Positions 16,900 to 38,334 of a stretch of 64,000 bases of DNA are shown here, piece after piece (position 1 is the first letter of the stretch; every line of letters starts with the position of its first letter). The stretch is taken from NCBI GenBank assembly GCA_014360825.1, contig JACIWT010000005.1, positions 16,248 to 80,247 of the forward strand, in the 5' to 3' direction. The position numbers were made by a program, and so were the translations under genes. Below the pieces are notes generated by a model. It had not been told where the DNA came from. It was given only the letters and a program-made list of their open reading frames with translations, and did not search any database. Source of the stretch: Chloroflexota bacterium (GTDB lineage Bacteria > Chloroflexota > Anaerolineae > UBA2200 > JACIWT01).

Positions 16900-16957
16900 A
16901 GGGCACCGTAGCCAAGGCGCTGACGGACTCGGTTTTGAACTCGCGAACGACCGGCTG

Positions 16958-18844: not shown

Positions 18845-20086
18845 CTACCTCATATCCAAACCAATAGCCCAAGCCGACCCCATGATGGGCGCTGGTCGAG
18901 GCTCCGATGGCCGATAATGCCCCTGTTCCCATCGAGTATACTCGTCGTACATCTCTGGAAGTGTTCTCCATTGTACCTGGCCGGATTGCACGTAAGGCTG
19001 AATACTCTGTAACCATCTCTCCAAGAGCATTATGTCCAAAGGCGAGCCCAGACTCCAGGAGACGTAGTAGATGTTGACCTGATCTGGTTCAGCGTACGAT
19101 AACGCCTCTTCCAACTGCCGGATGAAAGTATCAATATCCTCCTGCGTGAACTCACATTTGGTCACAGAGCGTTGAGGGGAAGAGGCCTCCTCTTGCATAC
19201 AGGCAAGCCCTCCACTGGACGGCAGGAGGGCTAGCCTTCCATTGGGATCGTGGGTCAACCAGTCGCTGCCGCTGTTCATCCGCCAGGGGTGGATGCGGTC
19301 TCTGAGATCAGTTGGGAAGGGTTGGTGACAGGCGGCCGGATTGAGGCAATTGCGGAATTGCGGAGGACGCTTTTCCGGTGGCAGGGACATCACAGCATAG
19401 GCTACCTGGCCGCTGGTGAAGAGATAGCCCGCGTCGGCGGCCGCGGTCACCCAGTCGCAATGGGAGACTATGCCAGAGACGTGCCGCACGGTCACGCCCA
19501 GCGATTCCAGTTGCTCTTTCCGCGCCCGCAGGTCGGCGGCAAAGCGGCTGCAGTCATAATTCCTCTCCCCGCCGATATCGGCATGGACACCAATGCCATG
19601 CCCGCGTTGTTCCATCTCCTTGAGGACGTTATCATTCCAACGCAGACAGCCGTCGGTGAACTCTTTGCTCTCCAGTGTCAGGCGCGCCCCGTAACGTTCA
19701 AAAAGGTCAGCGTATTCCCGCACATGCGTTGCATGGGCATTGAATCGAGCCTGATTCTCACCATCCGGCCAGCCCTCCAGATGCACCATGATTCCCAAGT
19801 ACAGAACTGCTTGACCCTCGGAGGGCGCAGAAACCGTCGCAGTCGGCGCCTGTACCGGCGTGGTAGCCTGTGCGGCACAGTCTGCCGGGCAGTTGCGGGG
19901 ATTCTCCGGCCCATTGCAAACCCCATCCCCACAGCGAGCACGAGGTGAAAATGTTTGCGTCTCTGAAATGGTTGGGAGTGGGGTGGGGGGTGATGTGGTT
20001 GGAGATATGGCCGGTAGCGCACAAGCGGTTATTAGCATAATGAGGATGAAGAGGGGCAATGTGCACTTCCACGGCTTGGCAAACAT
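18845..20086 (-). CDS. hypothetical lipoprotein, Cys-rich N-terminal region and a possible carbohydrate-deacetylase-like/TIM-barrel domain
   Basis: Lipobox LITAC and a PT linker. The domain assignment is weak (the HVSGIVSHCDW region). Confidence 0.45.
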   Translation of the reverse strand: MFAKPWKCTLPLFILIMLITACALPAISPTTSPPTPLPTISETQTFSPRARCGDGVCNGPENPRNCPADCAAQATTPVQAPTATVSAPSEGQAVLYLGIMVHLEGWPDGENQARFNAHATHVREYADLFERYGARLTLESKEFTDGCLRWNDNVLKEMEQRGHGIGVHADIGGERNYDCSRFAADLRARKEQLESLGVTVRHVSGIVSHCDWVTAAADAGYLFTSGQVAYAVMSLPPEKRPPQFRNCLNPAACHQPFPTDLRDRIHPWRMNSGSDWLTHDPNGRLALLPSSGGLACMQEEASSPQRSVTKCEFTQEDIDTFIRQLEEALSYAEPDQVNIYYVSWSLGSPLDIMLLERWLQSIQPYVQSGQVQWRTLPEMYDEYTRWEQGHYRPSEPRPAPIMGSAWAIGLDMR

Positions 20087-20146
20087 AGGGTTGGACCTCT
20101 TTGAGACGTTGGGCTGAGACGTCGCTTGTTTGCTTGAGTACTGCCG

Positions 20147-20189
<43 letters not shown>

Positions 20190-20240
20190 GCGGGCAGCTG
20201 CAGCGGGTGTTAGGCGGCTCTTTGAGGATGTATCCAAACT

Positions 20241-20477
20241 TCATGCTGGCGCAGGAGCCCTCTCCGTCAGGACCAAATTAACGACAGGAAGAGCTCTCAA
20301 CTCCAATTTTGATAGATCAATAAATTTGCTGGCATCCTCAATCTCAATCCCAATAACACGATTGTGCTCATCAAAGTCCAGCACAACCCCTGGTGCGATC
20401 TCCTCTGACTCGGTACTTACTCCTTCAATCAATTTGATATACAACATGTCGGTTTCAGGATAGTATTCGAAAATCAT
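20241..20477 (-). CDS. DUF2283-family protein (YuzE-like), antitoxin-like partner of DUF4258
   Basis: MIFEYYPETDMLYIKLIEG... is the DUF2283 fold. A GGAGAGGGGA RBS is present. The region is low-GC. Confidence 0.6.
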   Translation of the reverse strand: MIFEYYPETDMLYIKLIEGVSTESEEIAPGVVLDFDEHNRVIGIEIEDASKFIDLSKLELRALPVVNLVLTERAPAPA

Positions 20478-20490
20478 CGTCCCCTCTCCA

Positions 20491-20688
20491 TCAAGGCTTG
20501 AAGCGACGGTCGAAAAAAGCGTTATGCACGGTCTCTCCATCTGGTTCCGTCACGACCCGTAGATACTTGTCCATCTGGGCAACATATCCCCAATAACGGA
20601 TGCGTCCGTTGGCCTGCACTTCGGTGCGCATGGGATTCTTTAGAACGTGTTCAATCCACTCCATCTTGAGATAGGGTCGACGAGCCAT
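20491..20688 (-). CDS. DUF4258-family protein (toxin-like partner of DUF2283)
   Basis: MARRPYLKMEWIEHVLKNPMRTEVQANGRIRYWGYV... The ATG lies 13 nt after the rnhA stop. The ORF upstream overlaps rnhA. Confidence 0.55.
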   Translation of the reverse strand: MARRPYLKMEWIEHVLKNPMRTEVQANGRIRYWGYVAQMDKYLRVVTEPDGETVHNAFFDRRFKP

Positions 20689-20701
20689 AACGCTTCTGCT
20701 G

Positions 20702-21187
20702 TTAGGTGCGCTCATGTTCATAACCCATATCTGGCGGCAGGTTCTCCTGCGCAGCAGCTTGCATAGACAACTTGTCACAGCGCTCGTTTTCAGGATTCCC
20801 ATTATGACCACGTATCCAAACAAATTCAACATCATGTTGCTCACATAAATTTAGAAGCTTATCCCACAGGTCCGCATTCAAGGCCTTTTCTCTCTTATTC
20901 CTACGCCAACCATTCGATTTCCAGCGTTTTGCCCACCCCTCCATCATGGCATCAGCCAAATACTGCGAGTCTGTGTATAGGGTTACCTTACACCTTTCTT
21001 TGAGCGCACTTAACCCGACTATAGCTGCCATTATTTCCATGCGATTATTAGTTGTCAATCGAAAGCCGCCCGACAGCTCTTTCCGATGTTTGCCATATAG
21101 CAATACAACCCCATATCCACCAGGGCCAGGATTACCCAAGCAAGCACCGTCTGTGTAAATCACTACTCGTTTTAGTTCCTTGTTCAT
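20702..21187 (-). CDS. rnhA: ribonuclease HI
   Basis: All catalytic motifs are present ([44 protein letters not shown]). It is about 50% identical to E. coli RnhA by eye. The region is low-GC. Confidence 0.9.
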
Positions 21188-21206
21188 TTTGACTGGTAAA
21201 ACATCT

Positions 21207-21965
21207 TCAGACAACAACACCGTTTTCCTTAAAGTGATTTATCAGCTGGTATATCCGCTCAATATATTTTACGAATTGCCCAAGATTTGCAAGTATAACG
21301 CCCTTGTCCAAATCGGGCACGATTTGAGGATGACCAATCTCGTTTCTCGTAATTCTACAGAATTGAAACATTCCCCCAATAATAACATCCAGGTCTTGGG
21401 ACAGGATGCCGCTTGGTTTGCTCCTGCAACTTTGGTATGACCTTATGAACTCGTCATATTTTCTGGATATAAAGCGCCCATTCACTCTTGACAGAAACTG
21501 CTGTCTACTAGAATCATCCTGGATGGCGTCCCCGTATGTATGTATGAGTAGATTAATCGCACGCTCAGAGGCTGCACCTAGCATGAATGCTGCTGCTAGC
21601 AAAGCATCAGAACGCACACATCTAATGGACTCATCGATAAACCGTACAATCACGGGGTCGCAATCGGGCACGCGCTCTTGTATTGTCTGGGGGAACTTAT
21701 CTATTTCGAATGGTAACGCTTGGCCAGGAATTGCTCCCCCTGTCTCGATTGCGCTCTTCATCTCAGCAAGGAGAGTCTTCAGGGGGGAGTCTCTTCCCCC
21801 AAGAACGATTTTGCCGCTATTGTAAACACTCACATAGGCGGTTGTTGCCCCGCTTCTGACGGTTATTTTGTCACAGTATTGCTCTTCTTCGACAGAGAAT
21901 TCGAGTTTTTGTCTTTCAAGAAACGATACCACACTTTGAAATATGCTTGGTTCACCGACAGGCAT
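21207..21965 (-). CDS. hypothetical protein: N-terminal RNase HIII-N-like (DUF3378/TBP-like) domain plus a C-terminal HEPN-like domain (Rx4H); candidate abortive-infection/toxin nuclease
   Basis: The N-terminal [17 protein letters not shown] resembles the ITAYQSGKVLFQGK motif of the RnhC N-domain. The C-terminal [11 protein letters not shown] contains R-x4-H. The gene sits 19 nt upstream of rnhA and is co-directional in a low-GC island. A GGAG RBS is present. Confidence 0.55.
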
Positions 21966-22011
21966 TGTATCTCATCTCCATAGGAGAACTGACGAGCGCG
22001 CCTAACGGGAT

Positions 22012-22123: not shown

Positions 22124-22759
22124 TCAGCGCGATTTGATGTATTGCCCTGTCGTAGCATCATAAACATCGAAGTGGCCAAAGGATGTCTCAGCCAGCCAGA
22201 GCAATGAATAGCGCCCCAATTCAGCGTCTACATCTTCAAATAGATCGCTCGTTCTGAGTTCCAGACCTACCGATTGCAACTTGCGAAATTGTATCTCCGT
22301 TGAATCAACCCACCCTTCCAAAGCAAATAACTCGTCCGGTCGGATCGTCGCTATGTCGGATTTCACCAGTCTTGCCTTCCCCCCTTCCACATAGTATACG
22401 TTGGCTGTCGAGGACGTCTCATCTTTGGCGAAAATGACGACCCAGTGTGCCTGGTGCCCATCCGACCCAATACCGGGATCTTCCTCAACATCAAAAGGGG
22501 AACATCCCACATTGCAGAATTGCGACCAGCGGCCAACGAATGCCAGCCTCGCCGTAGCTTTCCACTCAGCCGGTAGGGCAGCATAAGCCAATGCAACCGC
22601 TTCTTTGGCACTCAACCGTTGCCCGGAAACAGATTGCACAGAGGATGTTAGCGTGGCCGGAGGAGGAGTTCCTCTGGATGGTAGATTAGAAGGCCGACCA
22701 GCACAGGCCGTCGCAATGAAGACCAACGCCAATAAGGTAAAGAAAGTTTGGGAACGCAT
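22124..22759 (-). CDS. hypothetical lipoprotein
   Basis: Signal and lipobox VFIATAC. No recognisable domain. Low-GC. Confidence 0.55.
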   Translation of the reverse strand: MRSQTFFTLLALVFIATACAGRPSNLPSRGTPPPATLTSSVQSVSGQRLSAKEAVALAYAALPAEWKATARLAFVGRWSQFCNVGCSPFDVEEDPGIGSDGHQAHWVVIFAKDETSSTANVYYVEGGKARLVKSDIATIRPDELFALEGWVDSTEIQFRKLQSVGLELRTSDLFEDVDAELGRYSLLWLAETSFGHFDVYDATTGQYIKSR

Positions 22760-22900: not shown

Positions 22901-23009
22901 CGCATCAAAAGCCGCAAATCGACATCTATACTATAAAATAAGTCATGGTGTTTGTCAAACCGAGGTCATCGCTGATGCGCTAATGCCAAGAGTTGAAAAG
23001 GAGTCAAGT

Positions 23010-23445
23010 ATGGCCTCCTCGCCGTTTCTCAATCGGGTTCGTCAGGTGATGCGGCTCAAGCACATGAGCCTCAGCACAGAAGACTCGTATCTCTACTATA
23101 TCAAACAGTTCATCCTCTTTCACAACAAACGTCATCCCAAAGACATGGGCGCTGACGGAATCCGCTTTCCGGCGGTCATCGTTCTGCCGAGCTGCGCACA
23201 GGCGTCATTCGCTGACACCGCCTTCACGGAGACGACATCCAACACGCGGTCAAACAAGCCATTCGCAAGGCAGGCATCGCCAAACACGGCCGTAGTTACA
23301 CCTTCCGCCACGGTTTCGCCCTCCACCTTCTGTAGGGGCGAAGCGGCGCTTCGCCCCTACGATATCCGCATCGTGCAGGAATGGGACCGCAAGGATGTGC
23401 ACACCATCATGATACACTCGCGTGCTGAATCGCGATGGCCTGGCG
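23010..23445 (+). pseudogene. degraded tyrosine recombinase (integron-integrase/XerD-like) remnant: N-terminal SAM-like domain fused to a C-terminal box II fragment, with a frameshift and loss of the catalytic Tyr
   Basis: The N-terminus VRQVMRLKHMSLSTEDSYLYYIKQFILFHNKRHPKDMGADGIRF matches the IntI/XerD N-domain. In another frame, IRKAGIAKHGRSYTFRHGFALHLL reaches a stop. Frame 0 then reads ALRPYDIRIVQEW..DVHTIMIHS (compare [23 protein letters not shown]). The middle roughly 200 aa are absent. Confidence 0.6.
23335..23357. repeat. perfect 23-nt palindrome GGGGCGAAGCG-G-CGCTTCGCCCC inside the integrase remnant at the frameshift point
   Basis: Read directly. It may be an inserted REP-like element. 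Confidence 0.45.
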
Positions 23446-23519
23446 CTGCGCAGCCCGCTGGATTAGAACTTTTGTTTTTCAGCGTGCTCTGTGGTATATT
23501 TCGCGTCAGGAGGATGAAG

Positions 23520-24089
23520 ATGCGAGAAGTACTCTTCGTTCACCAGTTGCCGAGTGGTCAGGTCATCCGCGTGGTCAAGGGCGACCTGACGGAAGAGCGG
23601 GTGGATGCCATCGTCAACGCCGCCAACGAGCATCTGGCTCACGGTGGCGGGGTGGCCGGGGCGATCGTGCGCAAGGGCGGGCCCGAGATCCAAGAGGAGA
23701 GCAACCGCTGGGTGGCCCAACATGGTCCGGTGCGCACCGGCACGGCGGCCATCACCGGGGCCGGGCGACTGCCGGCCCGATACATCATCCACGCCGTCGG
23801 GCCGGTGTGGGGGACGGGGGATGAGAAGGCCAAACTGGCCAGCGCGGTGCGCAGCGCTCTGCAAATGGCGGAGGATCACCGCCTTGCCAGCATCTCTATG
23901 CCGGGCATCTCCTCTGGCATCTTCGGCTTCCCGAAGGACCTTTGCGCCGAAGTGATGTTCGACGCCGTCCTCGAGTTCCTCGCTGAGCACCCCCAGACCA
24001 TACGCGAGATCAACTTCTGCAATATAGACGAACAGACGGCCAAGGTCTTCGCCGCCGAAGCGCGGAAAAGGTTTAAGGGCGTGGAATAG
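23520..24089 (+). CDS. macro-domain protein (ADP-ribose / O-acetyl-ADP-ribose deacetylase, YmdB/Af1521-like)
   Basis: VDAIVNAANEHLAHGGGVAGAIVRKGG...IIHAVGPVW...SISMPGISSGIFGFP. A GGAGGA RBS lies 6 nt upstream. The upstream part of the 22983 ORF is the integrase remnant. Confidence 0.8.
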   Translation: MREVLFVHQLPSGQVIRVVKGDLTEERVDAIVNAANEHLAHGGGVAGAIVRKGGPEIQEESNRWVAQHGPVRTGTAAITGAGRLPARYIIHAVGPVWGTGDEKAKLASAVRSALQMAEDHRLASISMPGISSGIFGFPKDLCAEVMFDAVLEFLAEHPQTIREINFCNIDEQTAKVFAAEARKRFKGVE

Positions 24090-24101: not shown

Positions 24102-27100
24102 TCAATACGTCGGCTCGCGGGATAAGACCATCAGCGCCAGGGCCAGGGCGCGCCCGGCCTGTCCGAGTTTCTGGGGGTCTATGTTCTCGGGGGTGTCCTC
24201 GGGGGTGTGAGAGAGATACACACTGCCATCCCAGGTGAGCCTTACCCAGGGGAGGTTCTTGTCCGCCCTGGGCGGTGTGAACCCAGTGCCCAGGGTGCTG
24301 ATATTCACTCCCGCCCGCTTGCCCACGGTGCGGAAAAAGCCGGTCAGGCGGTCGCTGGTGCTCTCTTGCAAGTGGATCCCGTTGCCTGTGCCACTGCCAA
24401 TCCCAACTAGGTCCAGCACGGCGATGATGCCATACGACTCGATGAACCCGGGACGCGCTCTCAAGAAATGGTCCACCCTGGGCTCCAAATGTCGCTCTGA
24501 ACCGCCCCAGGCGACGAAGATCACCGTGCGCTTGGGACGGAAGTCCAGGTCTTTCCACAGCCGTGCGATCTCTAACATCACCGCCACACTGCTGGCGCTA
24601 TCGTTCGCCCCAGGATAGAGGACGCCATCTATTCTGCGGCCCAGTCCATCGTAGGGGGCCAGCACGATGATCGCTTCGTCGTCCAGGGCTGTGTCTGTGC
24701 CGGGGATGAATCCTAACACGTTTATCACCGGGACGCTTCGCTTCTCACTCTCGATAGAAACGCGGGCTCGCGCCCCGGTGTGCATAGAAAATCCCTGACC
24801 GGCGCTCAATTGCTGCCAGGTTTGTTGCAGCTCTCGGAATGTGTAGCCGCTGTCCTTCAGGATCGCATCCGCCACTTCGGGAGTGATGTAGAGATAGGGC
24901 ACGTCGGCATTTGTGCCGGACTGTGGGTAGAGTAGGTTGCGCCGGGCCCATGCCTGTGGAGATTCCACAACGATCAGCAGTGCTCCTGGGCTGTAAGCAG
25001 TATAGTAGCGGAACAGCGAATAGATCGGCTGCAGAGACTGGGCGTCCACCATCGCCACGAAATTCCCGAGCTCCACTGAGCTAATCATACCCTGTTCGGG
25101 ATAGGTTACCGTACCAGGCCCGAAGCCGATGCATATTACCTCGCCCTCGAAAGAACCCACTTGTGAGGGCGAACCGTACGTCTCTGAAAAGTCCTGCCCG
25201 TACGTCCAGGGGCCGAGTTCCTGCCCTGCCCGGTCCCACACTTGGAGCGACGGCACAGCGGTCAGATCACGGACATCCCAGGGGATGGTCTGGAAATAGG
25301 TCCATTGGCCGTTCACTTCCTCTCCGGCGGATTGCACGCCGGCGGCTTCCATTTGTTTGGCAATATACTCAGCCGCCAACTGCGCGCCCCTGGTGCCGGT
25401 CAACCGGCCATCCAACTCTGGGCTGGCCAGATAGGAGATATCCTGCATCGCTCGCTCGACATTGAACTGTTGGGCCTGTGGGCCGTACACCCTCCAGGGC
25501 CCTGTGCCCTCTGCAGTGAAGAACACGAGCGCTACGACCGCAGCCGCGGCGGCCAGGGTATAGCGGCTGAAGAGGCGATTCAGGCTCACGGTGAGGCGCT
25601 CCGTCAGGCGGCGCAAGCCCTCTCCGAAGAGGTTGAACCCCAGGATGGCGATTGTGAAGGCCAGGGCGGGGTAGAAGGTGGTCCACGGGGCGCTGCGGAA
25701 GTACCGCCAGGTGTTGGAGAGCATCACTCCCCACTCAGGGATATCGAAATAGGTCAGCCCAGTGTCACTCATAGAAGAGGTGGTGAAACCACCACCGATG
25801 AAGACGCCCATGAAGCCCAGTTCGCCTAATAGCATGAGCACGCCGCCCATCTCCAGACAGGCCAGTACTACCAGCGACGGCAGCAGGTTGGGCAACACGT
25901 GGCGCAATAAGATAGCCACATCGCCCAAGCCAACCGCCAATGCACCTTCCACATAGTCGCGTTCGCGGATGCTCATCACCTGACTGCGAACGTATTGGGC
26001 TGTCTCGCCCCAGCCCACCACGCACAGCGCCACCACAAAGACCATCAACCCCTGGCGGATGCCCAGAGCATAGATGATCACGACTGCCAGGAGCAGGGTG
26101 GGAAAGGCAGCCATCACCTCGGTCACGCTCATCAGCGCCCGGTCCAAAAGGCTGTCGGAAAACCAACCCGCCAGACAGCCAACGACTGCCCCAAGCAGGA
26201 CACGAGCGAGCACAGCGAAGAAGGCGATGGTCATGGTGCGCCGTGCCCCCACTAACAGTAGGCTCAGGATGTCGCGGCCCTGTTGGTCTGTCCCCAAGGG
26301 GTAGCCGTGACCTGGGGAGAGTGGCGGCACGATCCATTTTCCGTCAATGTCGAAGTAAGAGTGAGTCTGAGAGGGATCGTGGGGCGCTAATTGGGGGCCG
26401 AGGACGACAACCACTACCAACCCGACGACTACAATTGCCCCCAGCATAAAGGAAAGGCTACCCAGAGTGCTCTGCACCCAAGCCCTTCTGCGCTCGGCGG
26501 CGATGACCTGGGCCCGGCGGAGTTCTTCGGCAGTTGGTGGGCGATGTTTCTCGTGATTCCCTTTGAGCAGTTGTGCGAGTCGGAACTCGGGGGCTTTTCT
26601 GCCACCGGGTAGGCGTTCGGAAAGGCGCTCGAAGGCATCGCGGATGCTGAAGACAACGTTGGCTAAGATATCCAATCCACTGCGCTTGGTCCGCAGTTGG
26701 ACATGCTCCTCGCGCAACCGGGGATCAATGCGCCGATACAAGATGTCCAAGGTCTGGTTGATGAGGATGAAGAACACGCCCAGGAAAAGGATCAACGTCG
26801 TTGCCAGTTCGATTTGCCCTTGCCGTATCGCGCCCCAGAGGGTCTCGCCCATGCCCGGCCAGTTGAAGAGTATCTCGACCACAGGAAGGCTGGATAGAGA
26901 AAAGCGCAGTGAGGTACCCAATGCTGTCAGAATGGGCACACCCGCGTTGCGCAAGGCATGGTCGAAGAGAACAGCGCGCCCGTTGAGTCCCTTAGCCCGT
27001 GCGGTGCGGATGTAATCGGTTTCCAGCACTTCGGCAAGGGCGACGAAGGAAACCCGCGCCACCTGGGCGATGGGTCGGGCTGCCAGGGTCAGTGCCGGCA

Positions 27101-28430
27101 GGATGATGTGGGCATCCCACCCGAAGCCACCAATCGGTGCTAATCGGATACCCGTGCTCTTGTAGAAGGTGATGACGACGATCTGGAGCAGGAGGCCGAG
27201 GAAGAAACTGGGCGCCGATACGCCAACTATGGCCAGCACGAGGAAAGCGAGCGACAGCCGCCCATGACGAGTCAGGGCAGCGCCTATCCCGAGTGGCACG
27301 CCAATCACTGCCCCCAGCAGCATGGAAAGGAACAATAGGGCCAGGCTCTTGCTCACAGTCGGGCGCACTAAATCGAGGATGGGGCGGGCGCTACTCTCAC
27401 GCCAGTAGTAGATGCTGCCAAAACCAGTGTTATACAAGCCGAAATCGCCTTTGGTGACCACGTTGGTCAGATACTGGCCGGTGTGGATCGCTGCCCGGAC
27501 TGCTGTATCCAGCACGTCCACCGATGCTCCGTAGCGCCCGTACTCTGCGACGCGCAGGCCGAAAAAGCAGAAATAGACAATGAACACCGAGGCGATAAGC
27601 GCAAAGACGATGGGTCGCACAATCAAGTTGATCAAGGGCATGAACGGCTTGAAGATGGCAGCCAGTTCGGATTCGTAGATTTGGGAGAGGAGTTCGCCGT
27701 CGCTGAGGGCGCGTTGCGGCGAGGCTAACTCCGATGGTAACCAAGCCACGGCATAGCCCTGTTCAGGCCGGGCGATGTCTTCCATGCGCACCACCCGGTC
27801 CGCCACTCGGCTGATTCGCGCGTCGCTCTCGGCGATGAGGAAGGCTACGCCCTCCTCATCGCACAGCGCACGCATCAAATCCGCCAGCGCACGGGCTTCC
27901 TCATCCGAGAGGTCACCCGCTGGCTCGTCGGCAAGCACCACAGCAGGCCCGTTCACCAGCGCCCGCGCCAGAGCGAGGCGCTGCTTCTCGGCCAGAGACA
28001 AAGATTTCGCTGGCAAGTTCGCCTTATCTGCCAAGCCCACCCGGGCCAGCAACCTCTCGGCCCGCGCCCGGCCCTCCGCGCGAGGGATATTGCTGTAGCG
28101 CAGGGGCAGCATGACGTTTTGCAGAACGCTCTGCTCTTCCAGCAGGAGTGGTTGGCGGAAGAGGAAACCGAGCCGGTTCGCACGCACTTTGGCGCGCGCC
28201 CAGGGCGAGAGTTGGGTGAGATCCTGATCCTCGATGTGCACTGTGCCGGCGGTCGGTTTCTCCAAGCCGCCCAAGATGCGCAGCAATGTGCTCTTGCCGC
28301 TGCCCTGGCCGCCGGTCACGACCACGAACTCGCCGTGCTCTACGGTCAGGTCCAGGCCGCGCATCAGGACGTACTGCTGGTCGCCTTCCCTATAGATTTT
28401 CGTGAGCGTAATCGCAGAGAGCGCAGGCAT
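24102..28430 (-). CDS. 1442-aa fusion: ABC ATPase domain (MacB/LolD-like, degenerate signature) + DppB-like permease + DppC-like permease + extracytoplasmic M28 (PA-domain) aminopeptidase
   Basis: A single uninterrupted ORF. The N-terminus has Walker A GGQGSGKST and Walker B LADEPAG, but the signature reads LSLAEKQR and the H-loop His is replaced (IAESD). The next domain has the DppB EAA motif TDYIRTARAKGL. The next has the DppC-type motif RDYVEGALAVGL. The C-terminal M28 peptidase domain has VINVLGFIPGTD...IIVLAPYDGLG...AWGGSERHLEP. Confidence 0.75.
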   Translation of the reverse strand: MPALSAITLTKIYREGDQQYVLMRGLDLTVEHGEFVVVTGGQGSGKSTLLRILGGLEKPTAGTVHIEDQDLTQLSPWARAKVRANRLGFLFRQPLLLEEQSVLQNVMLPLRYSNIPRAEGRARAERLLARVGLADKANLPAKSLSLAEKQRLALARALVNGPAVVLADEPAGDLSDEEARALADLMRALCDEEGVAFLIAESDARISRVADRVVRMEDIARPEQGYAVAWLPSELASPQRALSDGELLSQIYESELAAIFKPFMPLINLIVRPIVFALIASVFIVYFCFFGLRVAEYGRYGASVDVLDTAVRAAIHTGQYLTNVVTKGDFGLYNTGFGSIYYWRESSARPILDLVRPTVSKSLALLFLSMLLGAVIGVPLGIGAALTRHGRLSLAFLVLAIVGVSAPSFFLGLLLQIVVITFYKSTGIRLAPIGGFGWDAHIILPALTLAARPIAQVARVSFVALAEVLETDYIRTARAKGLNGRAVLFDHALRNAGVPILTALGTSLRFSLSSLPVVEILFNWPGMGETLWGAIRQGQIELATTLILFLGVFFILINQTLDILYRRIDPRLREEHVQLRTKRSGLDILANVVFSIRDAFERLSERLPGGRKAPEFRLAQLLKGNHEKHRPPTAEELRRAQVIAAERRRAWVQSTLGSLSFMLGAIVVVGLVVVVVLGPQLAPHDPSQTHSYFDIDGKWIVPPLSPGHGYPLGTDQQGRDILSLLLVGARRTMTIAFFAVLARVLLGAVVGCLAGWFSDSLLDRALMSVTEVMAAFPTLLLAVVIIYALGIRQGLMVFVVALCVVGWGETAQYVRSQVMSIRERDYVEGALAVGLGDVAILLRHVLPNLLPSLVVLACLEMGGVLMLLGELGFMGVFIGGGFTTSSMSDTGLTYFDIPEWGVMLSNTWRYFRSAPWTTFYPALAFTIAILGFNLFGEGLRRLTERLTVSLNRLFSRYTLAAAAAVVALVFFTAEGTGPWRVYGPQAQQFNVERAMQDISYLASPELDGRLTGTRGAQLAAEYIAKQMEAAGVQSAGEEVNGQWTYFQTIPWDVRDLTAVPSLQVWDRAGQELGPWTYGQDFSETYGSPSQVGSFEGEVICIGFGPGTVTYPEQGMISSVELGNFVAMVDAQSLQPIYSLFRYYTAYSPGALLIVVESPQAWARRNLLYPQSGTNADVPYLYITPEVADAILKDSGYTFRELQQTWQQLSAGQGFSMHTGARARVSIESEKRSVPVINVLGFIPGTDTALDDEAIIVLAPYDGLGRRIDGVLYPGANDSASSVAVMLEIARLWKDLDFRPKRTVIFVAWGGSERHLEPRVDHFLRARPGFIESYGIIAVLDLVGIGSGTGNGIHLQESTSDRLTGFFRTVGKRAGVNISTLGTGFTPPRADKNLPWVRLTWDGSVYLSHTPEDTPENIDPQKLGQAGRALALALMVLSREPTY

Positions 28431-28434
28431 TATC

Positions 28435-29598
28435 TCATTTCAATCCCGTCACGATAAACTCGATCCGCGCACTCATACCCCAGCGCAGGCCCTGCTCTTG
28501 CCGGTCCAGGGCGATACGGGCCTTGAAGACCACGTCGCCTGAGGGCAGGGTGGACCCCGCTGGGGCAATGTACACCAACCGACCGCGCAAAAGTCGGTTG
28601 CCCAAGCCCGGCAGGGTGAGCGTTACCCCCTGATCCAGGTGAATCTGACTCAGGTCCCATTCGTCCAGGTCGGTGGTCTCCACCTCGAATTCGGTCAGGT
28701 CCGCCAGGGTCATCGCTGCCTGGCCGGGGCTGATCATTTGGCCGGGGCGGAGGTGCAGGGCGGTGATCGTCCCGTCGAAGGGAGCCACGAGTTCCGCGGC
28801 GGCCAATGCTGCTTTTGCCGCCTCCAGGCGCTGGCGGGCCTGGCGCAATTGGGCCTCGGCGATGGTTTTCTCCTCGGCGGTTGGGCCTTGCTTCAGGCGA
28901 TCCAAAGCCGCCTGTGCCTGGGCCACGGCGGCGCGCGCCGAAGCCAATGCTGCCGGGGATGGACCTTCCAGTGCTTCTTGATACGCCAACTCGGCCAGCC
29001 GCACGCTGATTTCCGCGGAGGCGACCCGCGCGTTTGCTCCCTGCACTACATAGTCTGGGGATTCCGAGCCGGCGATACCGTCGCGCTCGGCCTGAGCCGC
29101 CCACAGGCTGTTCTTGGCCTGATCCCATTGCAATTTGTAGCGCTCGACATCGCGAGGGCTCGGGCCTGCCTCCAACTCCGCGAGGTTGGCCTTGGCACTA
29201 TCGAGTGTGGCCTGAGCCACGGTGAGATCCAGCGGGGTAGGTGTGGCCATGGCCTGGGCATATTGGGCTTCCTGGATCGCCAGAGCATCCGCGGCTGCGT
29301 CCACCTCACGTTGCAGATCATCGGTCACGAGGCGAGCCAGCACTTGTCCGGCTTGTACTGTATCGCCCTCTTTCACCAGCACTTCGCCTACCACGCCCCC
29401 GGTGCGGAAACTCAGATCCATCCATCTCACCGGCACCACAACCCCAGAAGCGCGGACCGAGGGACTCGTGGGAAGACCCTGCTCCCAGGTGCCCGGCGTT
29501 GGCTCTGACACTTGCTTTGCGACAAACGATTGTCCGACCATGTAGAGGACAATGGCTACTGCCACGACCACTGCCAAGATCAAAAGCAACCTTCTCAT
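28435..29598 (-). CDS. HlyD/MacA-family periplasmic adaptor (membrane fusion protein)
   Basis: An N-terminal TM helix, a lipoyl-like domain VLVKEGDTVQAGQVLARL, and a long coiled coil. The start forms an ATGA overlap with the upstream permease stop, and a GGAGG RBS is present. Confidence 0.85.
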   Translation of the reverse strand: MRRLLLILAVVVAVAIVLYMVGQSFVAKQVSEPTPGTWEQGLPTSPSVRASGVVVPVRWMDLSFRTGGVVGEVLVKEGDTVQAGQVLARLVTDDLQREVDAAADALAIQEAQYAQAMATPTPLDLTVAQATLDSAKANLAELEAGPSPRDVERYKLQWDQAKNSLWAAQAERDGIAGSESPDYVVQGANARVASAEISVRLAELAYQEALEGPSPAALASARAAVAQAQAALDRLKQGPTAEEKTIAEAQLRQARQRLEAAKAALAAAELVAPFDGTITALHLRPGQMISPGQAAMTLADLTEFEVETTDLDEWDLSQIHLDQGVTLTLPGLGNRLLRGRLVYIAPAGSTLPSGDVVFKARIALDRQEQGLRWGMSARIEFIVTGLK

Positions 29599-31865
29599 GG
29601 ACTCGCCTCCCATCCTGTCAAAGTAGATGGTTCAGACGCAGAAATCGGCGCTGTGTACTCACCTGGAAACTCCCGTGCAGCATGAAGGGCGGGGTAGAAA
29701 CCTCCCGCCAGACCCGTGAACAGGCCCAACAACACGCTGGTGATGAAGAGCCGTGGTGTAGACACCAGCACTGGTATATCCTGCTGCACCAAAATATAAC
29801 TGCTGTTCACCCACGAGGCTGCCCCCCAGCCGAGAAACGCACCGCACAGTCCCGCTATCCCGCCCAGGAGCGCTGCCCAGCCCAGGTACTCGGCGAAAAT
29901 ATCCGCTTCGGTGGCCCCGACGAGTTTCTTCAGTCGTATCCCCTCTCGTTGCGAAGCGACGGTCAGCGCGAGGGCAGCAGCGAGGCCTAAGCCAGATAAC
30001 GCCAGCCCCAGAAACCCAATGCCCCAGCGGACAGTATTATACACGACGCGGAGACGCAGGATGGCAACATCCAGGGTTTCTCTGACCACACTCTGCGCCG
30101 CCGGGAAGCCTGCCACAGCCTCCAGTAGCAGCGAGTCAACGGGTTGGACGGTGGCTTCCGTCACCAAAGCAGCCACTCGATTCAAGTACTCTGCTCTATC
30201 TTCTGCCCTCGTCACGGGGGGCACGAATAGAGTTATCTTGTCCACGGCGTAAGGGTCGCCCATGATCTGGCGGAAAGTTGTCAGTGGGATGTCCACGCGG
30301 AAATTGGCATCGTGGGGGAAGCCATACGGTACACGCGCCCAGATGCCAACCACCACGAAATCCCGCTCCCGGATGGTCAGCGTCTCGCCGATCCTCAATC
30401 CCCGCTGCTGTGCCAGATCGTAGCCGACCACCGCCTCCCATTCTGCCCCTGGCGATAGAGTCCGCCCCTCGGCCAGGTGAACCGGGTATAGCACCGAGAG
30501 GCCGGGGTATCCGGTGGAGGTTTGTAGCCCGTAGAGGACGCCTGATGCCGGCCGTAGAGACTGCCAGCCCAGTTCATCTTCGTTGACAGGGCCGCTATAG
30601 GCTTCGAGCACTATTCCGCTCACCGCGGGCAATCGTCCCAACTCGTGCGTCAGGCGGCGCGAACCACGCAGGGCTTGCAGCAACACTCGGTCTCGCCCCA
30701 GATTCTGCGCTATGGACAAGGTCGCCTGCAACGATTCCCCCCAAGATCCGGCCACAAACTGTGCCGCCACCACCAAAACTACGCTTGCCACAACTGCAAC
30801 CAGTGCCACGGGCCAGCCCGCGCGCTCCCAGCGCCATTTGGCCCAAGCCAGCCCTATGGTCAATGCGAGTGCCGTAACAGCCAGGGAGCCGATAACCAGC
30901 CGGGGCGTTACCACGCACGGTGTAAGCGCATAGTTGTTGCGCACCCAATTGTTTATGGCGAACGTGGCCATCCAGCCCAGCACCAGTCCCGCCACTGCCC
31001 CGATCGAGCCGAATAGCACCAAAGTTTCAGACAGCCCATCGCCTTGCGCTGCGGTAGCGTGCGCCACGGCAAACGTCACCGGCGTCGCCACAAGCAAAAT
31101 GAGTACGGCCACCAAGGCGGTCAGTGCCGAGGTAACGAGGACCGCGCGGCGCACTCCCGACCACTCTGTATCAGGGGAGACCACGTTCAACCCGTCTATT
31201 TCACTCCAAATGCGTTTGGCGACAGCCTCGGGCGAATATCCGGGGGCCGTCCAGGCGGTGATAGTGTCGTAGCGATTGGGAGACGCGCCGAGGATGTAGA
31301 CGGCGGCGTCATAACTCACCTGGGCGAAATTGCCACGCCGGATAGCCGATGGCCCCCAGATGCCGACCACGGTGAAGGGATGGCCTTGTATTTCGATGGA
31401 ATTGCCAACCCGGAGTCCGACCTGTTGCGCCAACTCGAAGCCTAGGACGCACTCGTCCATGCTATCGGGCTCCGGGAGGCGGCCCTGCACCAGACCTACG
31501 CCAGGGCTAGGGGGCGGATAACAGCGGGCAGGCCACTCGGAATCCGTGCCGGAGAAAGTCACCGTGGTCCAGTTCAGGCCACGGAGGTCCGTGCTGGCAA
31601 ACTGACCCGATATGGTAGCGGCCACTGCTGCCACGCCCTCAACACGCCGCACTTCTCGCATCACATAATCTTTGTCAGTGGCCGAGGATGAACGCGCACT
31701 TATGGTGATCGGATAGCCCTCCGCGCGGGATCGAGATTCTACGGCCGGGTATCGTTCAGCGACTGACCCCGTTAGGAGGAGGGAACACGCGCTGAGGAAC
31801 AAAACGATTGTCAGCAGGTCGGGGGCCAGGGCAGAGTGGCGGGAACGGTTTGGGAGAAAAGGCAT
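29595..31865 (-). CDS. ABC transporter permease with duplicated MacB-PCD/FtsX domains (756 aa)
   Basis: Two repeats of a periplasmic domain followed by a 4-TM FtsX-like module. It is the first gene of a three-gene operon on the minus strand. Confidence 0.8.
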   Translation of the reverse strand: MPFLPNRSRHSALAPDLLTIVLFLSACSLLLTGSVAERYPAVESRSRAEGYPITISARSSSATDKDYVMREVRRVEGVAAVAATISGQFASTDLRGLNWTTVTFSGTDSEWPARCYPPPSPGVGLVQGRLPEPDSMDECVLGFELAQQVGLRVGNSIEIQGHPFTVVGIWGPSAIRRGNFAQVSYDAAVYILGASPNRYDTITAWTAPGYSPEAVAKRIWSEIDGLNVVSPDTEWSGVRRAVLVTSALTALVAVLILLVATPVTFAVAHATAAQGDGLSETLVLFGSIGAVAGLVLGWMATFAINNWVRNNYALTPCVVTPRLVIGSLAVTALALTIGLAWAKWRWERAGWPVALVAVVASVVLVVAAQFVAGSWGESLQATLSIAQNLGRDRVLLQALRGSRRLTHELGRLPAVSGIVLEAYSGPVNEDELGWQSLRPASGVLYGLQTSTGYPGLSVLYPVHLAEGRTLSPGAEWEAVVGYDLAQQRGLRIGETLTIRERDFVVVGIWARVPYGFPHDANFRVDIPLTTFRQIMGDPYAVDKITLFVPPVTRAEDRAEYLNRVAALVTEATVQPVDSLLLEAVAGFPAAQSVVRETLDVAILRLRVVYNTVRWGIGFLGLALSGLGLAAALALTVASQREGIRLKKLVGATEADIFAEYLGWAALLGGIAGLCGAFLGWGAASWVNSSYILVQQDIPVLVSTPRLFITSVLLGLFTGLAGGFYPALHAAREFPGEYTAPISASEPSTLTGWEASP

Positions 31866-32906: not shown

Positions 32907-33416
32907 ATGCCTATCGCCACAGACCTGACCGCATCCGAAGTCTTGGGAATTGCCATCAAGTCCGAGATAGATGCGGCCACCGTGTACGACCACTTGGCCA
33001 AGAGGATACGCAATCGCGCTCTATCTGAGAAAATCACCTTCCTGCGCAAAGAGGAGGAGCAGCATCGCCGCCTGCTCGAGGAGATGTTTGCCCGGAATTT
33101 CCCCGGCGTGAAATTGCTTCTGCCGGAGAAGGGGCTGCACCCCGAGATGAGCATAGAAGTGACAAGAAGCATGACGGTGCCAGAACTTTTCGAACTGGCG
33201 ATGGAAGCCGAGGAGACCTCGCGGGATTTCTATGCCGACCTGGCCGAAAGGTCGGAGGATGAGAGCGGCAGGGCTACCCTTCGCTATCTGAGCAATATGG
33301 AAAGCGACCATTATTACCTGCTCAGGACTGAATACGAGATGGTCACCCGGTTTCCCGGCTACTACGACGCCGATGATTTTCACGTGGGTATGGACCTGAT
33401 CCACGTCGGTCCTTAG
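32907..33416 (+). CDS. rubrerythrin/ferritin-like diiron domain protein
   Basis: ExxH motifs (EEQHRRLLEE, ESDHYYLL) and a GAGGAGGAAGGGAA RBS. Confidence 0.7.
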   Translation: MPIATDLTASEVLGIAIKSEIDAATVYDHLAKRIRNRALSEKITFLRKEEEQHRRLLEEMFARNFPGVKLLLPEKGLHPEMSIEVTRSMTVPELFELAMEAEETSRDFYADLAERSEDESGRATLRYLSNMESDHYYLLRTEYEMVTRFPGYYDADDFHVGMDLIHVGP

Positions 33417-33434
33417 CACAAGGGGGATAAGACA

Positions 33435-34643
33435 ATGAAATTCGTGATCGTGGGCAATGGCGTGGCCGGCATCACGGTGGCCCGCTTCCTATCTGAGAAT
33501 AGCCCGGAGAACCAGGTGATTATCTACACGGCGGAACAGTTCCCCTACTATCCTCGCCCTCGCCTCCCGGAGTTCTTGGCAGGAGAGATCGCACAGGAGG
33601 AACTGTACTTTTATCCGCCCGAGTGGTATGAGCAAAGGCGGATCATAGTGCATCTGGGAACTCCGATAGAGGGTTTGGATCGGGCGGCAAAGCAGGTGCT
33701 CCCTAAGGGCAAACCCGCTGAGGCATACGATCGGCTTTTGTTGGCCAGCGGGGGCTATGCCTTCGTCCCGCCCATTGAGGGGAAAGATCAGCAAGGGGTC
33801 TTTGTCCTGCGCACGCTGCAAGATGCACTGAACATCCGGGCCTACGCTCAGAACGTGCACCGGGCCATCGTCATCGGCGGGGGACTATTAGGAATGGAGG
33901 CCGCACGGGGCCTGCGCAAACTGGGGTTGGAGGTCACGGTCCTCGAGTCGGCCCCTTATTGTCTGCCCCGCCAACTGGATGCGAAGGGCGCTTCGGTCTT
34001 CGAGAAGTATGCCACGGGACTGGGGCTGAAGATACTCACGCACGCATCATGTGAGGCCATCCTCGGCAATGGCTCGGTCAGCGGCATCCGTCTCACCGAT
34101 GGACGCACGCTCGACGGCGAGATCGTGCTCATCTCTACCGGCGTGCGCTCGAATGTGGCGCTGGCCAAGGAGGCCGGGCTGGTGGTGAACAAGGGCGTGG
34201 TGGTGGACGAGCATCTCACCACCTCGGACCCAGCGATCTTCGCGGCGGGTGACGTGGCCGAATTCAAGGGCCAGGTGTGGGGCATCATCCCGGCGGCCAT
34301 TGACCAAGCGCGAGTGGCCTGGCAGAATATGATCTCACCCAACTCTGCATCCTATCAGGGCACAGTGCCCTCCAACACGCTGAAAATCGTGGGCATTGAC
34401 CTGACCACCATCGGTAAATTTGATCCCGAGGGCGAGCCTTATCAGGTTTATCGGAGGGTAGGGGAAGAGAAGGGCATCTACAAGAAATTGGTGCTCCAAG
34501 ATGGTGTGATCGTGGGCACCATTCTCTTGGGCGATAAGAGACCGGTTGGCCCTATCAGTCGGCTGATCCAAGAGGGGAGAAATGTCTCAGCCTACGCCGA
34601 GCATTTATTGGATGACGATTTTGATTTCAACACCATTGCGTGA
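33435..34643 (+). CDS. FAD/NAD(P)-dependent pyridine nucleotide-disulfide oxidoreductase (NirB-N / rubredoxin reductase / NADH oxidase-like)
   Basis: MKFVIVGNGVAGITVA (FAD GxGxxG), a second Rossmann motif AIVIGGGLLGME, and AAGDVAE. Confidence 0.8.
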   Translation: MKFVIVGNGVAGITVARFLSENSPENQVIIYTAEQFPYYPRPRLPEFLAGEIAQEELYFYPPEWYEQRRIIVHLGTPIEGLDRAAKQVLPKGKPAEAYDRLLLASGGYAFVPPIEGKDQQGVFVLRTLQDALNIRAYAQNVHRAIVIGGGLLGMEAARGLRKLGLEVTVLESAPYCLPRQLDAKGASVFEKYATGLGLKILTHASCEAILGNGSVSGIRLTDGRTLDGEIVLISTGVRSNVALAKEAGLVVNKGVVVDEHLTTSDPAIFAAGDVAEFKGQVWGIIPAAIDQARVAWQNMISPNSASYQGTVPSNTLKIVGIDLTTIGKFDPEGEPYQVYRRVGEEKGIYKKLVLQDGVIVGTILLGDKRPVGPISRLIQEGRNVSAYAEHLLDDDFDFNTIA

Positions 34644-34660
34644 AGGAGGCAAGTGTGGCA

Positions 34661-35440
34661 ATGAATTTGATGGGCAAACGAGTGGCAGTTCTGGCGGAGG
34701 ATTTGTACGAGGACCAGGAGTTGTGGTATCCGGTGCTGCGGCTGCGTGCTGCGGGTGCCCAGGTGCAGATCATCGGTTCGGGGAGTGCCTCGCGCTATCA
34801 TGGCAAGTATGGTTGCCCCGTTGACGTAGATGCAGCCGTCGCCGATGTGGCCGACGTGGATTTCGACGCCGTGGTGATCCCTGGCGGCTACGCGCCGGAC
34901 AAAATGCGTCGCTACCCAGAGGTCCTCTCATTTGTCAGAAGGGCGCACGAGCGGGGCAAGGTGGTGGCTGCCATCTGCCATGCTCCGTGGGTGCTCATCT
35001 CGGCGGGCATCCTCAAGGGGCGCACCGTCACGGGCTTCAGCGCGATCAAGGACGATTTGGTGAACGCCGGCGCGACGTTTGTGGATCGAGAGGTAGTGCG
35101 CGATGGCAATATCATTACTTCGCGGCGGCCTGATGATCTGCCTGCCTTTGGCGAGGCGATCATCGCAGCTCTGGGTGAGGCGGAGACGGGCGATCTATCC
35201 GCGGTCACTGAGCAGACGTCGGCAATAGATGCGTTGCGCATCGCCATCCGGGCTGAGGAGTCGGCCAAGGCTTTCTACACCCAGGCAATGAGGCGGACGA
35301 AGGACCCGGCGGCCAAAAATATGTTCAAGCAACTGGCTGCCGAGGAGGAGCGCCACCGCGAGATCATTTTCAAGGAATACCAACACCTGACTGCAGATCC
35401 AGATTGGGATCGCTACGGTATCTGGCGCGAAGTAGTGTAG
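34661..35440 (+). CDS. DJ-1/PfpI-family protein fused to a C-terminal rubrerythrin-like helical domain
   Basis: AICHAPWVL (nucleophile-elbow Cys) and a C-terminal EESAKAFY...AAEEERHREI. A GTG start at 34640 or 34655 is possible, and a GAAGGAGG RBS is present. Confidence 0.7.
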   Translation: MNLMGKRVAVLAEDLYEDQELWYPVLRLRAAGAQVQIIGSGSASRYHGKYGCPVDVDAAVADVADVDFDAVVIPGGYAPDKMRRYPEVLSFVRRAHERGKVVAAICHAPWVLISAGILKGRTVTGFSAIKDDLVNAGATFVDREVVRDGNIITSRRPDDLPAFGEAIIAALGEAETGDLSAVTEQTSAIDALRIAIRAEESAKAFYTQAMRRTKDPAAKNMFKQLAAEEERHREIIFKEYQHLTADPDWDRYGIWREVV

Positions 35441-35526
35441 TTTGCCCTGGTGAGAGTTAACCGTGAAGACACAGAGGAAATCAAAAGGGGGTCTTTGTGT
35501 CTTCTTGCGGAATGAGGAGGGAGCCA

Positions 35527-35718
35527 ATGAAACGGAGGAGGGAAGAGAAAGCCCGATGTGCCAACTGTGGGGAGGTATTAGGCCCCAAGCCGATCCAGAG
35601 GGGCAATCAGCTCTATTGCTGCCAGGCCTGCGCATTCGAGGCTCAGCGGGCCAAGGATTGCGGCGGGCGCGCCGATAGCGTGATCACCAAAGGTATCGTC
35701 GAACCGAGAGAGAAGTGA
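35527..35718 (+). CDS. small Cys-rich zinc-ribbon-like protein
   Basis: CANCGEVL..YCCQAC and a GAGGAGGGAG RBS. Confidence 0.4.
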   Translation: MKRRREEKARCANCGEVLGPKPIQRGNQLYCCQACAFEAQRAKDCGGRADSVITKGIVEPREK

Positions 35719-36332
35719 ACATCCGTATCTTGGCCGTAGCGGGCAGTCCCAGGCGCGGCGGTAACTCCGAGACCCTCCTGGACCAAGCCATTGCCGGCGC
35801 GGAGTCGCAGGGCGCTCTGGTCGAGAAGGTTGTGCTCCAGGGCTTGAAGATCGCACCGTGTATCGAGTGTGACCGCTGTTTCCAGACTGGGCGCTGCGCT
35901 GTGCAGGATGACTATCAGGTCTTATACGACAAACTCCTGGCCTATGAAGGGGTGATATTGGCCGCGCCCATCTTCTTTATGAATGTGAGCGCCCAAGCCA
36001 AAGCGTTCATTGACCGCTGCCAATGCCTCTGGGCGATGAAATACGTCCTCCGCCAACCGTTGCCCCCCACGTCCTCGGGACTGTCTCGTCGGGCGGCATT
36101 TATCGCCACGGCAGGGTCACCCCGAACCAAATTCGATTGTGCCCTTTCCACCGTGCGGGCTTTCACCAATACCCTGGATGCGACCTACAACGGTGATGTG
36201 CTCATCAATGGAATAGATGAAAAGGGCGCAGTCTCGGCATACCCCGATGTGCTACGAAGGGCCTTCGCGTTAGGTGAGAAGTTAGCACTCGCAGGGCTTA
36301 ACCCAGATGAAGTGCCCTTGAAGCCAAGGTAG
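35715..36332 (+). CDS. iron-sulfur flavoprotein (Isf) / NADPH-dependent FMN reductase family
   Basis: Flavodoxin-like N-terminus ILAVAGSPRRGGNSE plus the compact Cys cluster CIECDRCFQTGRC. Confidence 0.75.
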   Translation: MNIRILAVAGSPRRGGNSETLLDQAIAGAESQGALVEKVVLQGLKIAPCIECDRCFQTGRCAVQDDYQVLYDKLLAYEGVILAAPIFFMNVSAQAKAFIDRCQCLWAMKYVLRQPLPPTSSGLSRRAAFIATAGSPRTKFDCALSTVRAFTNTLDATYNGDVLINGIDEKGAVSAYPDVLRRAFALGEKLALAGLNPDEVPLKPR

Positions 36333-38312: not shown

Positions 38313-38334
38313 GCAAACAATTTTTAGTGGAGCC

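Follow-up and report, generated by a model that had tools for sequence, protein, structure and literature searches.

A degenerate ABC ATPase domain fused to a Dpp-type permease and an M28-like ectodomain in a MacAB-like operon of Anaerolineae

The window analyzed here is a stretch of 64,000 nucleotides from a Chloroflexota bacterium of the class Anaerolineae (contig JACIWT010000005.1 of GenBank assembly GCA_014360825.1, positions 16,248 to 80,247 of the forward strand), and all coordinates given below are those of the window. Three translationally coupled genes on its minus strand encode, in this order, a duplicated FtsX/MacB-type permease (FtsX-dup), a HlyD/YknX-like membrane-fusion adaptor, and a fusion protein in which the nucleotide-binding domain (NBD) of an ATP-binding cassette (ABC) ATPase is joined to DppB- and DppC-type membrane domains and to an M28-like ectodomain. 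FtsX-dup (29595..31865, 756 amino acids) has eight transmembrane (TM) helices arranged as 4+4. The stop codon of its gene overlaps the ATG of the adaptor gene as ATGA, and the adaptor therefore likely starts at 29598, which gives a protein of 387 amino acids with an N-terminal TM anchor (28435..29598); at its full extent the open reading frame (ORF) runs from 28435 to 29613 and spans 392 amino acids. The TGA stop of the adaptor gene is followed by 4 nucleotides (gata) and then by the ATG of the fusion gene, a single ORF of 1442 amino acids (24102..28430 including the stop codon). An earlier note on this DNA had described a MacAB-like operon with precisely these two spacings and one uninterrupted ORF for the fusion, and all of this holds: there is no internal stop between 28430 and 24102, and both partner proteins match the expected families. 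The adaptor is recognized by the Pfam models HlyD_D23, HlyD_3, and Biotin_lipoyl_2 and scores above the NCBIfam cutoff of RND_mfp, and FtsX-dup matches MacB_PCD twice and the FtsX domain once, in its C-terminal half only. A scan for promoters and terminators gave counts no higher than the shuffled expectation; one promoter-like site lies around 166 nucleotides upstream of the FtsX-dup start.

Pfam recognizes in the fusion protein an ABC_tran domain (residues 24 to 171), two BPD_transp_1 domains, OppC_N, and Peptidase_M28 (residues 1237 to 1430), and its topology was derived from hydropathy analysis and from homology to DppB and DppC. The degenerate, LolD/MacB-type NBD forms the cytoplasmic N-terminus (residues 1 to 220; 27771..28430) and is followed by a likewise cytoplasmic linker to the first TM helix (residues 221 to 270; 27621..27770) that has a clade-specific motif around D246 and Y252 and a low predicted local distance difference test score (pLDDT) at residues 219 to 247 in an AlphaFold2 (AF2) model. 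The six helices of the DppB/OppB-type domain (residues 271 to 575; 26706..27620) and the six of the DppC/OppC-type domain (residues 656 to 950; 25581..26465) are separated by a basic cytoplasmic linker (residues 576 to 655; 26466..26705), with 21 lysines and arginines in the loop of residues 558 to 658. Each of the two membrane domains has its EAA loop (residues 470 to 497, 26940-27023, and residues 823 to 851, 25878-25964), in agreement with the earlier description of two Dpp/Opp-type permease domains with EAA motifs. A 13th TM helix at about residues 953 to 974 (25506..25580; 953 to 973 in the topology prediction) is seen both in hydropathy and as an AF2 helix, and because it follows the 6+6 helices of the Dpp part, the C-terminal M28 fold with its PA-like insert and degenerate catalytic site (residues 976 to 1442; 24105..25505) is predicted to lie outside the cell, as the earlier note had expected.

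The NBD of the fusion protein does not resemble those of dipeptide importers. Its best matches in the PDB are LolD (1.3e-41) and MacB (1e-39), alongside YbbA, BceA, and FtsE, and its top NCBIfam matches are the LolD, DevA, and MacB models, all of them under the equivalog cutoffs. By sequence, the domain is thus of the LolD/MacB/FtsE (type VII) kind and not of the DppD/F kind, and so belongs with the FtsX/HlyD module. A residue-by-residue alignment to E. coli LolD finds Walker A (GGQGSGKST, residues 40 to 48; 28287..28313) and Walker B (VVLADEP, residues 164 to 170; 27921..27941) intact, while the signature reads LSLAEKQR in place of the canonical LSGGExQR (27978..28001, with LSLAE at residues 144 to 148) and the H-loop histidine is replaced by Ser202 in the sequence AFLIAESD (27822..27845). 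These calls had all been made in the earlier note; the alignment adds one further defect, as the Q-loop glutamine of LolD aligns with Arg92, which is itself followed by a glutamine.

The decay of this domain is a property of the whole fused family. Motif survival was counted in 33 fused-family members and in the 120 nearest stand-alone NBDs, which are 44% to 48% identical to that of the window. A canonical signature is found in 0/33 of the former and 119/120 of the latter, and the H-loop histidine in 0/33 and 117/120, respectively. Walker A is intact in all 120 stand-alone NBDs and in merely 6 members of the fused family, the window protein among them, while the Walker B aspartate is kept in 32 of the 33. 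These counts indicate that the decay is specific to the fused family, and a neighbor-joining tree of the family places at least 2 independent losses of Walker A. The earlier claim of a noncanonical NBD therefore stands in a stronger, family-wide form, with Walker A also gone from most relatives; the regulatory role that the note suggested for it is weighed below as a rival. With a mean pairwise identity of 0.45 within the family, the domain is still constrained, and its best-conserved stretches are residues 83 to 109 (Q-loop and helical subdomain) and 154 to 170. In ABC proteins generally, the former stretch forms the groove into which the coupling helices of the membrane domains fit. From the established ABC mechanism, neither composite ATP site of any dimer of this NBD should be canonical, because a single NBD species contributes a bad signature together with a bad H-loop or P-loop. 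With regard to ATP-driven mechanotransmission, the motif evidence argues against hydrolysis by the NBD.

The M28-like ectodomain at the other end of the protein shows a comparable picture. The alpha/beta fold of M28 peptidases is recognized by Pfam (Peptidase_M28 at 2.4e-17) and by an AF2 model of the ectodomain with a pLDDT of 93.2 and a predicted template modeling score (pTM) of 0.92. Foldseek matches this model best to PA-containing M28 proteins (E around 1e-24 over some 480 to 540 aligned columns), and the structural matches comprise the Aneurinibacillus aminopeptidase, PaAP, BSAP/YwaD, the transferrin receptor, and GCPII. A PA-like insert is therefore suggested at the level of the fold, while the Pfam PA model matches 0 of the 33 family members. 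The catalytic residues were read from alignments to AAP, to YwaD, and to five closely related proteins whose motifs are canonical (AAP numbering is used here). Asp117, the bridging zinc ligand, and the zinc ligands Glu152 and Asp179 are kept as Asp1277, Glu1312, and Asp1340; the zinc ligand His97 is replaced by Pro1259, the catalytic general base Glu151 is replaced by Ser1311, and the SDH loop with the zinc ligand His256 is deleted (between Phe1384 and Thr1385). Two of the five zinc ligands are thus lost together with the general base. The canonical close relatives, found in a profile-free search of 1.8 billion representatives, read HYDHxG, GANDNASG, AEExGLxGS, and SDH at these motifs; some of them stand alone, and others are part of DUF418-M28-M28 giants. 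In relatives of the fusion protein without an NBD, the His97 position is Tyr, Gln, Asn, or Pro and the Glu151 position is Gly throughout (31/31 aligned sequences), and both positions are variable in the fused clade, where His97 survives in about half of the members and the Glu-Glu pair in a few. Judged by these residues, the M28 domain attached to DppBC is a pseudo-peptidase. Of the extracytoplasmic PA-domain M28 peptidase described earlier, the fold and, as a prediction, the location can be upheld, and a PA part is suggested by fold match but not by Pfam; the catalytic residues cannot be upheld, and the suggested peptide cleavage linked to transport is contradicted by Pro1259, Ser1311, and the deleted loop of the last histidine. 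One DppBC protein without NBD, P0130, has two M28 domains, a degenerate proximal copy and a distal copy with canonical catalytic motifs, and the DppBC-M28 proteins of L046 and L070 also have a second, distal M28 domain. No such second domain is found in the fusion protein of the window, and while a small number of relatives may couple transport to a working peptidase, the window protein does not.

The four-domain architecture recurs in at least 52 further protein clusters at 90% identity, drawn from JGI, ENA, NCBI, and Logan assemblies, with 45% to 53% identity over about 100% of the query, and the junction between NBD and DppB is also seen in an independent metagenome-assembled genome (MAG), whose locus L016 is 93% identical over residues 1 to 573. 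Around 45 additional clusters of roughly 1180 amino acids differ solely in that they have no NBD. When one genome was scanned for each GTDB species, 360 relatives from the DppBC-pseudo-M28 family turned up, and approximately 10 loci in these species genomes encode the four-domain form. Nearly all of the listed relative loci (78/80) are titled as Chloroflexota lineages, chiefly Anaerolineae, and the cultured Ornatilinea apprima and Thermanaerothrix daxensis carry forms without NBD. Some Anaerolineae genomes have two copies of the DppBC-pseudo-M28 family. The MAG Tumba.bins.16, the closest relative, encodes the four-domain copy at L016 and an NBD-less paralogue at L020, and NBD-less DppBC-M28 genes are tandemly duplicated in L048, L053, L054, and L074. 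Because the fusion is conserved across many independent assemblies, the gene is genuine and old, and this conservation also answers the concern that better sequencing might reveal a stop or frameshift between the domains or restore canonical motifs. Database names for the fusion are generic, such as "ABC transporter permease subunit" or similar labels of ABC permease or ATPase components.

Wherever a four-domain locus has flanking sequence (9/9), the FtsX-dup and HlyD genes are its immediate upstream neighbors, compared to 0/63 true NBD-less loci. A search with the NBD alone found operons in two other Anaerolineae, L088 and L092, which have the same gene order as the window operon and in which the NBD is a gene of its own: FtsX-dup proteins of 763 and 761 amino acids are followed by HlyD/YknX-like adaptors of 385 and 390 amino acids and by canonical NBDs of 227 and 226 amino acids. 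The window FtsX-dup is 26% identical to that of L088 (E 1e-52), and the adaptors are 36% identical (E 1e-52). By their sequences, these unfused operons look like the parent of the fused family. An extra ORF of 115 amino acids lies between the FtsX-dup and HlyD genes of L088 (4396-4743), L089, and L090 and is absent from L092 and the window.

Within FtsX-dup of the window, two extracytoplasmic MacB_PCD domains, one between the first two TM helices (residues 36 to 240; 31146..31760) and one placed by hydropathy in the second half (residues 372 to 615; 30021..30752), are accompanied by a single coupling-helix motif. The FtsX-dup proteins of L088 and L092 have this motif (REIGLKKALGA) twice, and Pfam FtsX matches both of their halves. 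Where the operon is fused, all 14 FtsX-dup proteins have a single copy of it, located in their C-terminal half, and the loop after the second TM helix is short and variable. Alignment places the sole retained motif of the window protein, QREGIRLKKLVGATE, at residues 636 to 660 (29886..29960; motif at 640 to 655), while comparison with the unfused homologues, which carry RRREIGLKKALG in the loop after the second TM helix, finds no motif in the corresponding loop of the window protein (residues 260 to 281; 31023..31088). A type VII functional unit has two coupling helices, one per NBD, and FtsX-dup of the window is one short of that. No gene for an outer-membrane factor was found in the ORFs scanned with Pfam on either side of the operon or in the genes called in L001, a relative with 49% identity, and Chloroflexota are generally regarded as monoderm.

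The Dpp core is the most strongly conserved part of the fusion protein, with mean pairwise identities of 0.72 for DppC, the highest of all domains, and 0.61 for DppB, and the residues of the EAA loops are invariant in the fused and in the NBD-less subfamilies (across sets of 36 and 45 sequences). Its domain scores are far under every NCBIfam equivalog cutoff. The core without NBD is widespread in Anaerolineae, and many of its genes are orphans. Of the 63 NBD-less genes with flanking sequence, 13 follow a canonical cluster of dppD, dppF, a family-5 solute-binding protein (SBP) gene, dppB, and dppC on the same strand, and this arrangement suggests that shared DppD/F ATPases serve the NBD-less genes. 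In other lineages, the core carries different N-terminal domains, namely a dephospho-CoA-kinase-like (CoaE) P-loop domain in L036, L050, L056, and L069, with a degenerate P-loop in L056, or apparent TPR repeats in L077 (confirmed by Pfam), L028, L086, P0070, P0098, and P0089. The cytoplasmic N-terminus is therefore a variable accessory position, as would suit an adaptor or accessory function. A conserved membrane protein, absent from the window and about 590 to 600 amino acids long, adjoins NBD-less DppBC-M28 genes on either strand in 14 loci (L062:6271-8076, L082:5117-6877, L032, L040, L042, L051, L054, L055, L065, L074, L076, L077, L081, and L083). In this protein, an N-terminal anchor is combined with a repeat-rich ectodomain and a multi-TM C-terminus; its only Pfam match is a weak one to GH43, and it may be another partner of the DppBC-M28 core.

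We lean, by a modest degree, toward a reading of the dead NBD as a structural adaptor linking the DppBC-pseudo-M28 permease to the FtsX/HlyD scaffold. Read-through would have joined the NBD gene at the end of a YknXYZ/MacAB-like operon to an adjacent DppBC-pseudo-M28 gene, and around or after this fusion the NBD would have lost its signature, H-loop, and Q-loop glutamine, and in most lineages also Walker A, with FtsX-dup giving up one of its two NBD-coupling helices alongside. The NBD would then be no motor but a folded docking module that seats one DppBC-pseudo-M28 unit on the remaining coupling helix of FtsX-dup, and the resulting assembly would bring together a permease with a receptor-like ectodomain, the ectodomains of FtsX-dup, and HlyD. 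The M28-like ectodomain would bind rather than cleave, as in the transferrin receptor, and energy from ATP, if any, would come from DppD/F-type ATPases encoded elsewhere that dock on the invariant EAA loops. At its most ambitious, this reading describes a hybrid of two ABC classes, in which the NBD was exapted as a structural adaptor that bolts a trans-energized type I Dpp permease with a dead-peptidase ectodomain onto a type VII FtsX/HlyD scaffold that gave up one NBD-docking site, yielding a new envelope-spanning machine for uptake or sensing in monoderm filamentous Chloroflexota; in this full form, we consider it rather doubtful. As a guess, such a machine might capture a peptide or another solute of the Opp family across the cell wall.

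Several points weigh against this reading. We infer the docking geometry, the binding of the NBD to FtsX-dup, the stoichiometry, the energization in trans, and the substrate from the features described above, and an AF2 model of residues 1 to 975 (pTM 0.66) yields no confident placement of the domains relative to each other. The proposed stoichiometry follows from the loss of a sequence motif, and a duplicated FtsX protein can be asymmetric, like BceB, and nevertheless bind two NBDs. Energization in trans is a conjecture, as neither DppD/F genes (with their oligo_HPY tail) nor a family-5 SBP gene are present in the 64-kb window. Finally, the window protein retains both Walker motifs and may thus still bind ATP and perhaps hydrolyze it slowly.

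This last point leads to the rival view of a regulatory NBD that would, in the subclade of the window protein, gate either FtsX-dup and HlyD or the Dpp permease as a nonhydrolytic switch, by binding and releasing ATP or by very slow hydrolysis. The intact Walker A and B motifs of the window protein and 5 relatives would fit such a switch, as would its ABC_tran score, the best of the family, and the identity of 44% to 48% between its NBD and canonical LolD-like ATPases. However, the P-loop lysine and serine/threonine are gone in 27 of the 33 members, which nonetheless keep the architecture and the operon, so that ATP binding is dispensable for the conserved function. As signature and H-loop are moreover missing in every member and the AF2 model has its lowest confidence in the P-loop sheet (residues 1 to 65), we regard a switch as unlikely. 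The same model, with its disordered linker (pLDDT below 50), also bears on another alternative, in which the dead NBD would dock in cis on an EAA loop in the DppB or DppC part of the chain, either as a plug or in place of one DppD/F subunit, while FtsX-dup and HlyD would merely be co-expressed. A linker of about 50 residues does tether the NBD beside the first TM helix of DppB, the EAA loops are invariant, and the core bears other cytoplasmic domains at its N-terminus elsewhere among the lineages. Yet the model gives no confident docking in cis, the NBD is of the LolD/MacB and not the DppD/F type, its fusion co-occurs perfectly with FtsX-dup and HlyD, and the parent operon indicates that it was the partner of an FtsX protein, which together make a plug in cis quite improbable in our view.

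We see very little room for the model of the earlier note, in which an active M28 aminopeptidase would trim peptides that are imported by the Dpp permease or exported by the MacB-like pump, powered by the fused ATPase. While the domain composition would suggest as much and the canonical distal M28 domain of P0130 indicates that peptidase coupling may exist elsewhere in the wider family, the window protein has no second M28 domain; in the one that it has, the first zinc-ligand histidine is a proline, the catalytic glutamate is a serine, and the loop of the last histidine is deleted, and the NBD that should power the process is devoid of signature, H-loop histidine, and Q-loop glutamine. An artefact or a decaying pseudogene, with separate genes joined through a lost stop codon or a frameshift, is harder still to reconcile with one ORF kept in 52 clusters of four different sources, conservation of 0.45 to 0.72 across all domains, and a junction seen at 93% identity in an independent MAG, and we give it practically no credence. 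The related contig L006 does show the NBD apart from the rest and was considered as an unfused intermediate with a separate NBD gene, but its translation revealed a frameshifted copy of the fusion: the frame is broken inside the NBD, and the sequence goes on in another frame, making this contig an exception.

Compared to known systems, the locus is a variant of established kinds—type VII tripartite ABC systems, PepT permeases, and M28 proteins with a PA-like insert—rather than a new category, though neither the fusion architecture nor any type VII NBD that is dead by nature was found described in the literature searched, which did not cover subscription journals. Like MacAB(-TolC), YknXYZ, and DevBCA, the window operon couples a HlyD adaptor, an FtsX/MacB_PCD permease, and a LolD/MacB-type NBD, and the unfused operons of L088 and L092 share its gene order with all three parts clearly homologous. 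Unlike in MacAB, YknXYZ, and DevBCA, however, the NBD of the window has no signature, H-loop, or Q-loop glutamine and is fused to importer-type membrane domains, the permease is one coupling helix short, and the Pfam-scanned neighbors include no outer-membrane factor. FtsEX with EnvC, PcsB, CwlO, or RipC similarly ties an FtsX-type permease with its ectodomain to an extracytoplasmic protein of a hydrolase fold, and EnvC-type partners of FtsEX are also catalytically dead (e.g., PMC10268282 and PMC11627006). Yet the ATPase activity of FtsE is essential, while the NBD of the window is degenerate, and the hydrolase fold of the window is M28 with a PA-like insert instead of LytM or CHAP and is tethered to the NBD via a 13-TM Dpp module instead of being bound to the FtsX ectodomain.

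The importer part has its counterparts in the type I systems DppBCDF and OppBCDF (PepT), with which it shares two BPD_transp_1 domains, the OppC_N helix, and canonical EAA loops. It differs from them in that DppB and DppC are in one chain and are extended by the 13th TM helix and the ectodomain, and in that the window, including the operon, holds no cognate SBP or DppD/F gene. The ectodomain has the fold, with a putative PA- or apical-like insert, of the transferrin receptor, BSAP/YwaD, PaAP, the Aneurinibacillus aminopeptidase, and GCPII. Among these, the transferrin receptor is likewise membrane-anchored and has lost catalytic residues, but the window ectodomain is bacterial, sits on an ABC permease and not on a single TM anchor, and keeps the equivalents of Asp117, Glu152, and Asp179. 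Functional ABC proteins with a noncanonical signature, H-loop, or Walker motifs are exemplified by CFTR, SUR, and TM287/288; in those, one consensus site remains, whereas the NBD of the window would leave no canonical composite site.

The surroundings of the operon in the window hold several further features. A plus-strand gene for a 368-amino-acid protein with a phage-integrase N-terminal SAM-like domain and a Macro domain (22983-24089) runs toward the fusion gene, and its end lies 12 nucleotides from the stop codon of the fusion. Farther along, the G+C content drops to 0.478 at 20001-22000, compared to around 0.60 on either side, and this stretch, which may be foreign DNA, has an RNase H gene (20702-21220) and ORFs at 21207-21965 and 22124-22759 with no Pfam match. 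A 1598-amino-acid large helicase of the Lhr type, with DEAD_assoc, several Lhr winged-helix domains, and an AlkZ-like region, is encoded at 12119-16915 on the minus strand. On its other side, the operon adjoins a plus-strand cluster of oxidative-stress type (32907-36332) that encodes rubrerythrin, a rubredoxin-reductase-like flavoprotein, a DJ-1/PfpI-rubrerythrin fusion, and an FMN reductase. Three of these four, all but the flavoprotein, are also found near the operon in L001 (17077-19101), a case of conserved synteny. The sole other ABC ATPase in the window (38287-39048, plus strand) was considered as a motor for the fusion protein and rejected, as it is unrelated, lies on the opposite strand, and is about 6.4 kb away; it is followed by an ORF of 421 amino acids without Pfam match (39048-40313, plus strand) that is apparently unrelated to the operon. 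The G+C content is also lower (0.50 to 0.51) at 40001-44000, where a glycoside hydrolase of family 4 is encoded (42968-44314).

The fusion protein thus keeps both an ABC ATPase and a metallopeptidase as folded, conserved domains minus their catalytic residues, a clean natural case of pseudoenzyme evolution in a single protein that is matched in the partner permease by the loss of one NBD-coupling helix. Automated annotation would wrongly call the fusion an active peptidase and ATPase. If the NBD indeed is a structural adaptor, it would challenge the view that type VII ABC systems always require their own ATPase, and it would mean that modules for import and for mechanotransmission can be brought together physically. 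The DppBC-pseudo-M28 family constitutes a large, uncharacterized envelope component of an abundant and poorly studied lineage.

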